64,000 nt of DNA from Alphaproteobacteria bacterium (GTDB lineage: Bacteria; Pseudomonadota; Alphaproteobacteria; UBA828): NCBI GenBank assembly GCA_963667785.2, contig CAXXMU010000005.1, positions 192,001-256,000 of the forward strand, in the 5' to 3' direction. Under the pieces are notes generated by a model that saw nothing but the letters and a program-made list of their open reading frames with translations, searched no databases and was not told the DNA's origin. Both the position numbers and the translations under genes were made by a program. How positions within the stretch are numbered: position 1 is the stretch's first letter; every line of letters begins with the position of its first letter. Below are positions 39,646 to 60,254 of the stretch, piece after piece.

Positions 39646-39659
39646 GGGCGGGCATGTTA

Positions 39660-39926
39660 ACCTGCACTTCTCACCATGGTCATGGTCTGCGCGGCGCTGT
39701 CCGACCGACAGGGCAGGAGAGGCGCGCAGCGCGATGCGGGGACATCGGGCAAGCGCCTCGACGCACACTGTCGGTCGGACAGCGCCGCCCTTCGGGTCTC
39801 GCCCAGGCGCCCGCCCGCGGCGTCGCGAGCCTCAACCGTATTCCCCGATACGCTTTTCGGCCCGCTCCTGGCGGATCGAACGCCTGGTGCGCGACGCAGA
39901 CCGTGACCATGGTGAGAAGTGCAGGT
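39660..39926. mobile_element. MITE-like palindromic element, family A, copy 1 (267 bp, TA-flanked)
   Basis: 32-bp terminal inverted repeats ACCTGCACTTCTCACCATGGTCA(T/C)GGTCTGCG with one mismatch; TA at 39658-39659 and 39927-39928; homologous copy at 59973-60237. Confidence 0.88.
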
Positions 39927-39953
39927 TAGCAGCCCGCGCGCGCCGGCACCGGC

Positions 39954-40676
39954 TCAATACATGTGGGTGCCGCCGTTCATGGTGATGGTGGAGCCGGTGG
40001 TCCATGCCGCCTTGTCGTCGACGAGAAAGAGCACCGCATGCGCTACCTCGTCTTCGTAGCCCATGCGGCGAACGGGCGACTTGTCGATGATCTTCTTCAC
40101 GATCTTCTCGGGCATGTTGCGCATCATGTAGGTGTCGACGTAGCCGGGCGCCACGGTGTTGACCGTGATCCCGTGCCTCGCACCCTCCTGCGCCAGTGCC
40201 TTGGTGAAGCCGTGCATGCCCGCCTTGGCGGCGACGTAGTTGACCTGGTTGAGCTGGCCGGCCTGGCCGTTCATCGAGCCGATCTGGATGATCCGGCCCC
40301 AGCCGCGTTCGATCATGCCGGGATAGACCGCCTTCGACATGTAGTAGACGGAATCGAGATTGACCCGCACCACCCGCTGCCACTGGTCGTCGGTCATGTT
40401 CTCGAACTTGTTGTCGGAGACCGTGCCTGCGTTGTTGACGAGGATCTCGACCGGGCCGTGCTCAGCCTCGATCGCCGCGACGCCCGCGCGGCAGGCCTCG
40501 CCGTCGCTCACGTCCCACTTGCGCGCCGGAATGCCGGACTCCGCGCTGAACGCGGCGGCGCAGGCCTCGTCGGCATGGTAGTTGACCACCACCGGGTGGC
40601 CGGCCTGCTTCAGGGCACGCGCGATCGCCGCGCCGATGCCGCGCGTGCCGCCGGTAATCAGCGCATGCCGTTCCAT
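39954..40676 (-). CDS. Acetoacetyl-CoA reductase paralog (divergent PhaB-like)
   Basis: Motifs TGGTRGIG, NNAG, NYVAAKAG and NGGTHMY. Confidence 0.88.
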   Translation of the reverse strand: MERHALITGGTRGIGAAIARALKQAGHPVVVNYHADEACAAAFSAESGIPARKWDVSDGEACRAGVAAIEAEHGPVEILVNNAGTVSDNKFENMTDDQWQRVVRVNLDSVYYMSKAVYPGMIERGWGRIIQIGSMNGQAGQLNQVNYVAAKAGMHGFTKALAQEGARHGITVNTVAPGYVDTYMMRNMPEKIVKKIIDKSPVRRMGYEDEVAHAVLFLVDDKAAWTTGSTITMNGGTHMY

Positions 40677-56303: not shown

Positions 56304-59972
<3,669 letters not shown>

Positions 59973-59973
<1 letters not shown>

Positions 59974-60237
59974 CCCGGATTTCTCACCAATGTCACGGCC
60001 TGCGTCACGTCCAGGCGTTCGGTCCACAAGGAGCGAGCCGAAAAGCGTAGCGGGGACTACGGTTGAGGCTCGCGACGCGGTGGGCGGGCGCCTGGGCGCG
60101 ACCCGAAGGGCGGCGCCCTCCGCCAGACAGGGTGCGTCAAGACGCTTGCCCGATGCACCACATCGCGCTGCGCGCCTTTCCTACCCTGTCGGGCGGGGGA
60201 CGCCGCGCAGACCATGACCTTGGTGAGAATTCCGGGC
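59973..60237. mobile_element. MITE-like palindromic element, family A, copy 2 (265 bp, TA-flanked, inverted relative to copy 1)
   Basis: Imperfect TIRs GCCCGGATTTCTCACCAATGTCACGGCCTGCG / CGCAGACCATGACCTTGGTGAGAATTCCGGGC; TA at 59971-59972 and 60238-60239; aligns with the reverse complement of 39660-39926. Confidence 0.88.
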
Positions 60238-60254
60238 TAGCCCCGCGGCGGTCG

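Follow-up and report, generated by a model that had tools for sequence, protein, structure and literature searches.

Why should an element that encodes nothing keep an elaborate fold while the letters of its stems turn over? The question is raised by two copies of one element in a 64,000-nucleotide stretch of an alphaproteobacterial genome (GenBank assembly GCA_963667785.2, contig CAXXMU010000005.1, positions 192,001 to 256,000 of the forward strand), hereafter the window. The genome itself, which we call G000, measures 4.09 Mb in 14 contigs with 70% G+C, is 98% complete, and contains the window at C5:192001-256000. Our best reading is that the element belongs to an undescribed family, a new family of TA-duplicating non-autonomous mobile elements. 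We put at roughly 60% the probability that all copies form one family of ~270 bp non-autonomous elements of the MITE (miniature inverted-repeat transposable element) kind, moved in trans, whose fold is selected at propagation on DNA. What normally defines a MITE is its pair of ends, and the interior is free to decay. The present family holds its ends, two hairpins and junction as a fold from one genus to Inquilinus, with stems that turn over even within one genome, a pattern that normally marks a structured nucleic acid as functional. Should mobility depend on the fold, a folded intermediate would be implied in an element with the target signature of IS630, a family described as needing none.

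Copy A occupies positions 39658..39928 of the window on the plus strand, both flanking TA dinucleotides included (39658..39659 on the left, one copy of the duplicated target, and 39927..39928 on the right), and its orientation served as the reference for all alignments. The termini are inverted repeats (left arm 39659..39690, right arm 39896..39927, both plus strand) that pair into a terminal stem of ~32 pairs; the outer ~14 bases of the left arm are conserved in sequence, and its inner part is variable and complementary to the right arm. Between the arms lie hairpin 1 (about 98 bases, 39691..39788, plus), with a core at its tip of the form CGCGATG-loop-CATCGGGCAAGCG (39730..39755, plus); a junction mini-hairpin CCCTTCGGG (39788..39796, plus), the loop of which reads GAA, GGA, TCC or GCA in relatives; and hairpin 2 (about 100 bases, 39796..39895, plus), with the conserved tip region CTCAACCGTA...TACGCTTTTCGG. 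The terminal stem, the two long hairpins and the mini-hairpin together form a Y shape on either strand. Copy B (59971..60239, both TA included) lies on the minus strand, opposite in orientation to copy A. A preliminary description of the window had placed these two TA-flanked copies exactly and estimated their identity at ~84%; we find 86.9% over 251 bases by BLAST and about 85% end to end, counting ten outer bases per side from alignment A1. The compensated stems that it had listed can all be seen when the copies are compared, with ACCTGCA/TGCAGGT becoming GCCCGGA/TCCGGGC, CACCAT/ATGGTG becoming CACCAA/TTGGTG, CCGC/GCGG becoming CCAC/GTGG and CGTAT/ATACG becoming CGTAG/CTACG, in addition to the TGTCCGAC stem. 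The element is non-coding: internal open reading frames (ORFs) are broken by one-base insertions and deletions that differ among copies, a judgement made from these indels and not from homologue searches, and no transposase is carried, the window having been noted before to contain none.

The element is mobile, in keeping with its first portrayal as a mobile palindrome, and empty sites are found for both window copies. The 3' end of gyrB is matched in 19 of the 21 genomes of the genus, and only in G000 is the element found downstream of it; in every one of the other 18 relatives (18/18) the stop codon is followed by ~20 bases and then an ATG, which constitutes the empty site. Copy B lies between the gyrB stop codon TAG (59971-59973), the TA of which is the target, and the start of a PBP1A gene (~60255). 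In G000 the TA of the stop codon stands on both sides of the copy, and the first G of the element restores TAG. Several further copies among 36 loci overlap the stop codon of a neighbouring gene in the same manner (distances of -2 or -3). Copy A has as neighbours an SDR gene that stops at 39954 and a methyltransferase-like gene that starts at ~39645, both on the minus strand; its orthologous site is filled in G013, with flanks 88-91% identical. An empty allele of this site, which comes from a relative, is given by a 758-base contig (run X17) and a contig of run X16, both of which join 39652 to 39949 via 22 other letters.

A tally of 89 untruncated copies from 19 species defines the target. TA is present on the left in 58/89, on the right in 68/89 and on both sides in 43/89, while the base before the left TA is C or T in 58/58 and the base after the right TA is G or A in 66/68; nearly all of the remaining ends are one base off TA, mostly by transition (CA, TG). 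The TA ends and their single-base variants therefore define a target of the form Y-TA-R with its central TA duplicated, and the target words are CTAG, TTAG, CTAA and TTAA, of which CTAG is the commonest. A 4-bp duplication of the IS5-like kind was considered and set aside: the four-letter words are identical in only 20/43 copies, and it is rejected because copy B, unique to G000 at its site, reads TTAG on one side and CTAG on the other. The element thus shows the properties of a MITE, being small, non-coding, multi-copy and dispersed, with terminal inverted repeats, a TA duplication and empty sites in relatives, and it shares with IS630/Tc1-mariner elements a TA target with a 2-bp TA duplication, often within CTAG. 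Members of the IS630 family are described as choosing TA, doubling these 2 bp and transposing by a cut-and-paste route that involves no hairpin intermediate (PMC2170065), and the reference list of that source cites a paper on a preference for TA within CTAG. On the strength of these descriptions, Y-TA-R with TA duplication is an IS630 signature. The earlier remark that TA duplication is typical of IS630/Tc1-like elements agrees with this signature, but no IS630 element with matching ends was found.

The family anticipated from the two window copies is borne out by a BLAST search of the genome, which gave 12 full-length copies in G000, two of them cut at the right end; 18 of 20 congeners hold many more. 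The element folds to -192.7 and -201.2 kcal/mol on its two strands, compared with about -120 in shuffles (z = -14.5 and -15.1; 0/200 shuffles as good). A consensus structure derived from the 12 G000 copies was mapped through copy A onto two larger alignments, A3 with 97 copies from the genus and A4 with 40 diverse copies (14 genus copies plus copies from genomes G060-G064). RNAalifold run on the 97-copy alignment returned a poorer structure of 64 pairs, which was not adopted. In A3, 95.9% of cells fall in standard pairs (93.2% in shuffles, 34-40% when partners are slid), and in A4 95.6% do (82.1% in shuffles, ~36% with slid partners). Covariation across these further copies, which had been proposed as a check, exceeds the shuffles in both sets. 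Pairs changed on both sides number 36/99 in A3, against 14.1±2.1 in shuffles (0/500 as high) and 7-16 with slid partners, and 59/99 in A4, against 37.9±2.3 (0/500 as high) and 17-27. The corresponding counts of both-sides-changed cells are 252 in A3 (70.7 in shuffles) and 455 in A4 (115 in shuffles), and the covariation score reaches 0.101 in A3 (shuffles 0.052) and 0.357 in A4 (shuffles 0.117, slid partners at most 0.068). The shuffle control ignores relatedness and is hence not a probability; the slid-partner control and the pairs of multiple types are free of that flaw, and several A4 pairs occur as three or four Watson-Crick types.

The changes are spread over the whole structure. With hairpin 1 comprising helices 2-4 and hairpin 2 comprising helices 6-8 in A3 and 7-11 in A4, both-sided changes in A4 affect 20/30 pairs of the terminal stem, 14/21 and 6/8 pairs of hairpin 1 and the majority of the helices in hairpin 2. 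Sequence is kept at the outer ~14 bases, in the CCTGCGC segment, at the two junctions CAGGGCAGGAG and GGGTCGC, in the core hairpin and in the tip region of hairpin 2. Many positions differ in the stem of hairpin 1 and in the terminal stem below its outer end, at about positions 15-30. Within a single Inquilinus genome, copies show many subterminal differences, yet the arms match within each copy. A Y-shaped fold of terminal stem and two hairpins is thereby strongly supported, and a constraint on pairing rather than on sequence is supported in all three arms. The preliminary description had gone further in stating that even the termini covary. A few terminal positions do so (3, 6, 8 and 11) and the strongest covariation lies just inside, but throughout the wider family the ~14 bases at the very ends keep their sequence, as in ordinary MITEs.

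At which step such a fold might be needed has to be considered together with the way in which the element moves. In the scheme that we favour, the conserved outer end of ~14 bases would be where the mobilising enzyme binds and cleaves. This enzyme would be a TA-duplicating transposase acting in trans, most likely an IS630/Tc1-like DDE enzyme in view of the target signature, or alternatively an IS5/IS427-like one (the IS427 group duplicates TA at YTAR). Only copies with an intact three-armed fold would give rise to new copies, and because of this the fold would act at the propagation step, on DNA in single-stranded or cruciform form, and not as a strand-specific RNA. A number of results weigh against this scheme. 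By Pfam, G000 contains no DDE_3, HTH_Tnp_IS630, DDE_Tnp_4, DDE_Tnp_1_2, DUF4096 or Y1_Tnp, in an assembly of a kind from which repeats are often missing; among the families searched, the only match is one DDE_Tnp_1 gene, which lies inside an island on C1 discussed below. Relatives carry several IS630 groups and IS427-like elements, and the ends of our element flank none of 41 insertion sequence (IS) loci taken from them (13 + 8 + 20, a sample and not a census, with 21 DDE_3 loci included), nor does BLAST show similarity to the element in any of 13 IS loci. None of the IS630 ends (CTAGAGCATATCCG-like, CTAGTCACCTG-like and CTAGAGCGTATCCG) matches the element end TAGCCCGCATTTCTCACC, and the IS427-like ends TAGGGCCTGTTCACAC, TAGGGTCCGGACTCAT and TAGGCTCCAGACTCAA do not match it either, apart from a loose likeness near CTCA; G000 itself has no IS427-like element. 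In G003 there are 101 end sites (0 with the reversed pattern as control), and the sole pair of ends spaced 0.6-3 kb apart, at 1.96 kb, turned out to be an element whose internal CTAG had received a 440-aa DDE IS (L151). The longer version with a transposase ORF that had been envisaged at the outset was consequently not recovered: neither the 41 IS loci nor the G003 end sites gave an autonomous form. Neither DDE_3 nor Y1_Tnp is present in G061, which holds the most similar copies sampled and whose four identical IS427-like copies have ends only loosely like those of the element. Moreover, IS630/Tc1 transposition is described as using double-stranded ends without a hairpin intermediate (PMC2170065), and a constraint on the whole fold is left unexplained by the known properties of that family. 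Of the tests taken up below, that of change in place comprises only 7 differences, and those based on the gene caller and on GC skew are crude and weak.

Strong covariation and conserved loop motifs would also suit a structured RNA that happens to be mobile, that is, a cis signal for processing, stability or termination in messages, with its fold selected by the host. There are precedents in the Correia elements with RNase III, in ERIC with RNase E (PMC10969869) and in bcr1 (PMC3184786), as far as these are set out in the two sources. Many copies abut stop codons or sit shortly upstream of start codons, and contigs of four RNA libraries contain parts of the element, with a summed depth above that of the flanks, although these contigs may reflect DNA carry-over, have neither strand, ends nor level, and carry no meaning where cover is missing. 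The idea of selection on an RNA or single-stranded DNA fold, with which the study of this locus began, holds in that pairing is constrained in all arms, but nothing favours RNA or either strand. Total G·U exceeds A·C in A3 (465 vs 171), with 333 of the former supplied by four near-fixed wobble positions; counted per column, G·U is the more frequent in 30 and A·C in 34 (p = 0.71), and the same count in A4 is 18 vs 24. The mean folding energy of 134 copies is -196.3 kcal/mol on the reference strand and slightly better, at -198.2, on its complement, and among 36 copies the 16 with co-directional neighbours are divided into 8 running in the same direction as the genes and 8 opposed, by a crude gene caller that misses some genes. 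Given the balanced columns, the folding energies and the gene orientation, an RNA gene is therefore not supported. A simple sigma-70-like promoter scan of the two window copies found no promoter-like site in or at the element, and the single terminator-like site found by a terminator scan lies outside it. Rfam, the consultation of which had been recommended, offers no family match: Rfam 15 gives 0 matches at gathering score in the window, only hairpin-like microRNA models at E >=0.5 for the element, and for 15 loci of the wider superfamily described below one hairpin-like microRNA match at E = 0.041, far below gathering score. Four orthologous pairs of copies that are near-identical (97.0-99.3%), and mostly more alike than their flanks, add that change in place is not compensated, as each of the 7 differences falling in a pair alters one side only. 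We regard a host-selected RNA as quite improbable. The same strand symmetry fits a different account, under which there is no selection on the fold at all and the arms are kept complementary by template switching, arm-to-arm gene conversion or flip-flop inversion. The loop of the mini-hairpin occurs between lineages as reverse-complement pairs (TTC/GAA and TCC/GGA; A4 columns 157-161), and at one orthologous locus (L053 vs L143) the element stands in opposite orientations in two species; the two observations are suggestive of DNA-level inversion or template switching. At most pairs of covarying sites all four combinations are present, which shows exchange between copies. Copying processes of this sort would nonetheless have left four G·T positions uncorrected in 77-92 of 97 copies, the 7/7 one-sided differences also speak against them, and the conserved unpaired motifs beside variable stems point to function and not to copying alone; we consider an account without selection unlikely. 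For selection at propagation speak, besides the near-identical pairs, four other orthologous pairs in which the element differs far more than its flanks (for example 90.3% vs 96.5% and 98.8%, or 89.2% vs 94.3% and 98.8%), with 18 of 55 touched pairs changed on both sides, and this fits replacement or conversion of the resident copy by another member of the subfamily. The seven differences lend thin support to the view that compensated variants arise and spread among propagating copies, while copies in place just decay.

A folded intermediate might also be reached by another route, if the element were to move as a single folded DNA strand that is recognised by its shape, with one TA as the target and the other as the element's own end. 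The enzyme would then be of a non-DDE kind, either HUH/Y1 as in IS200/IS605 or a tyrosine recombinase as in attC-like systems. To this account belong the covariation of all three helices alongside conserved junctions, loops and outer ends, the hypervariability within one genome of subterminal arms that an enzyme of the sequence-reading DDE kind would not need, and the lack of a DDE partner among the loci searched; empty and filled sites fit a TA duplication and an element carrying one TA alike, and the element's right end is the attachment site of an island with a tyrosine integrase. Y1_Tnp is, however, found in none of G000, G060 and G061. A single active strand would be expected, but wobble and mismatch columns and folding energies are symmetric, and orientation shows no bias with respect to local GC skew (51/97 positive, p = 0.44, a weak test given a skew of only about 0.005). 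Symmetric inverted ends and a Y-TA-R target are, moreover, typical of DDE elements, and such a mode of movement seems to us an improbable one. Unlikely, too, is a more far-reaching proposal, in which the copied unit is the three-way-junction fold itself, not a pair of ends bound by protein, and the family exemplifies an unrecognised alphaproteobacterial class of fold-dependent elements that would move as a folded single strand (DNA, less likely RNA) by means of an enzyme outside the classical IS630, IS5 and Y1 groups, with the core hairpin, which other TA-flanked elements with different ends also have, as recognition module. Mobilisation in trans by a TA-duplicating transposase, with the fold selected as copies propagate on DNA, is thus the reading that we carry forward.

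Among known systems, the MITEs of IS630/Tc1-mariner elements share with the present family small size, lack of coding capacity, terminal inverted repeats, TA duplication and a Y-TA-R target; unlike them, the whole element is here constrained to pair, the subterminal repeat is hypervariable, and no IS630 with matching ends was found. REP/BIME sequences are clustered palindromes of 20-40 bases, with a Y1 (RAYT) transposase gene in the genome; these were dismissed for an element of 270 bp that is dispersed and TA-flanked in a genome, G000, without Y1_Tnp. Derivatives of IS200/IS605 have no inverted ends and no duplication but subterminal hairpins and a Y1 transposase, and were likewise dismissed for an element with inverted ends in genomes (G000, G060 and G061) that gave no Y1_Tnp match. 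In the attC sites of integrons, short outer cores are conserved in sequence and the rest is kept only as a fold, and the combination of conserved ends with variable complementary stems is a likeness to our element. The attC sites differ in belonging to cassette arrays beside an integron integrase and in using one folded strand, whereas the copies described here are dispersed, TA-flanked and strand-symmetric; they lie between ordinary genes, and no integron context turned up, in work that included no search aimed at intI or arrays. The closest parallel in kind is bcr1 of the Bacillus cereus group, a MITE-like repeat of ~155 bp described as having compensatory changes that keep a two-hairpin, cruciform-like fold, 5-bp direct repeats, and a fold at the RNA level in the transcribed repeat (PMC3184786). 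Repeats that keep a fold by compensatory change are therefore not new in kind, although bcr1 belongs to another phylum and has no sequence relation to the present element, which has three arms and no favoured strand. MITEs are also known to form stable hairpins in transcripts, and the Correia elements of Neisseria, cut by RNase III, and ERIC of enterobacteria, which exposes an RNase E site, are described as intergenic inverted repeats that, as long transcribed hairpins, alter the expression of neighbours (PMC10969869). They are, unlike the present element, simple hairpins of ~100-155 bp with protein or RNase sites. Correia elements have TA flanks, and to our knowledge neither they nor ERIC show comparable covariation across three helices. 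The rhizobial RIME, Sm-repeats, and AB and C palindromes are described as alphaproteobacterial intergenic repeats that share sequence and secondary structure (PMC2573895), and they may be identical with the wider core-hairpin superfamily discussed below. Literature searches on MITEs in Alphaproteobacteria, on IS630, on sponge symbionts, on Rhodospirillales and on RIME turned up no account of the family. In practical terms, scans for structured RNA are likely to pick the element up as a false positive.

The family comprises tens of copies per genome in one genus, with diverged relatives in other alphaproteobacteria. Matches at E <=0.001 are present in 19 of the 20 other genomes of the genus, and at <=1e-10 in 18 of the 20, with many per genome (up to 45, as matches and not copy numbers) at 83-95% identity; two complete genomes, G015 and G016, have essentially none, and 28 genomes that represent 13 further genera of the order gave no match at all. 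Within G000, the highest identity between any two of the 12 copies is 94.1%, so that G000 shows no recent burst. Some copies bear extra GC-rich hairpins at the tip of hairpin 1 or within hairpin 2. A 39-base end motif, allowing <=9 mismatches, finds 53 sites in G000, 22 of them within full copies and 31 elsewhere, the latter being short two-ended derivatives (e.g., C1:623252-623370) and solo ends. The solo ends are partnerless stretches of 40-60 bases, many of them positioned 20-50 bases upstream of a start codon and oriented away from the gene (examples are C1:495352, C1:551262, C1:915193, C1:1084449, C5:137210, C5:391011 and C2:781238). Deletion derivatives are seen in G003 as well (L152, L153 and L154), including a ~165-bp form without hairpin 1 and a ~116-bp form with little beyond the ends; the junction of the 165-bp derivative recurs, as a loose end, in a contig from an RNA library that had been size-fractionated (run X19). 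Sponge metagenome is the label of most DNA runs in which the stretch is present, and RNA runs hold only small shares of it.

Beyond the genus, a scan for the core of the hairpin 1 tip, with one genome per species, yielded at least 103 loci, of which 80 were inspected (L155-L234) and 17 matched the element profile from end to end. Whole-genome searches were made in five of the core-bearing genomes. G060 and G061 each gave 41 matches, at ~81-91% and ~80-87% identity to copy A, with closest within-genome pairs of 97.4% and 98.9%, the latter being the most alike of all copies sampled; G062 gave 12 matches at ~80% (closest pair 98.1%), G063 gave 5 at ~85-89%, and G064, Inquilinus ginsengisoli, a species known as a soil isolate, gave 12 at ~71-75% (closest pair 93.0%). 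The core, extended to ~55 bases (…GGCGCG..GCGCAG CGCGATG-loop-CATCGGGCAAGCG ..GCAACGC…), also occurs in a second, TA-flanked element type with different ends, found in other Alphaproteobacteria under record titles that include Hyphomicrobiales, Kiloniellales, Thalassospira, Roseibium and Hoeflea (example L171:229-391). The ends of this second type (TAGAGCATTTCCGG…) resemble, as judged by eye, IS630 ends seen here (TAGAGCGTATCCG…). When the class is sampled evenly, the exact core is present in 13 of 401 genomes (12 of 308 genera, G000 included), several with 5-17 copies, and the reversed pattern in 0 of those 401. The exact core was also met in 3 of about 2.9 million viral contigs, and a plasmid collection queried with a superfamily element gave two short matches without annotated feature.

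The element leaves its mark on its surroundings in several ways, since it supplies stop codons (TAG) and adjoins gene starts, and other IS insert in the TA at its ends or in an internal CTAG. A 1055-bp IS of the IS630 family lies exactly in the flanking TA at 3 of 7 G060 loci (L323, L330 and L331), and an IS427-like IS does so at 1 of 2 G061 loci (L342). These IS630 and IS427-like insertions share the target of the element, which does not imply parentage. Outside the window, an island of ~19.6 kb (G000:C1:701528-721442) lies inside the right end of one copy (left junction L011:1501-1823), with a 9-base direct repeat, GGTGAGAAA, at both junctions. The island starts with a P4-type tyrosine integrase (Arm-DNA-bind_3 + Phage_integrase) and also contains an IS110-like gene. 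Six more copies, from five species, break off at the very base of the island junction and continue into DNA that is 79-87% similar, and at two orthologous loci a sister species retains an intact element where the island cuts the copy. From the shared cut base, the similar DNA and the intact sister loci it follows that the end of the element is the attachment site for a family of islands, and by offering P4-type islands this site the element therefore shapes genome plasticity in these sponge-associated bacteria.

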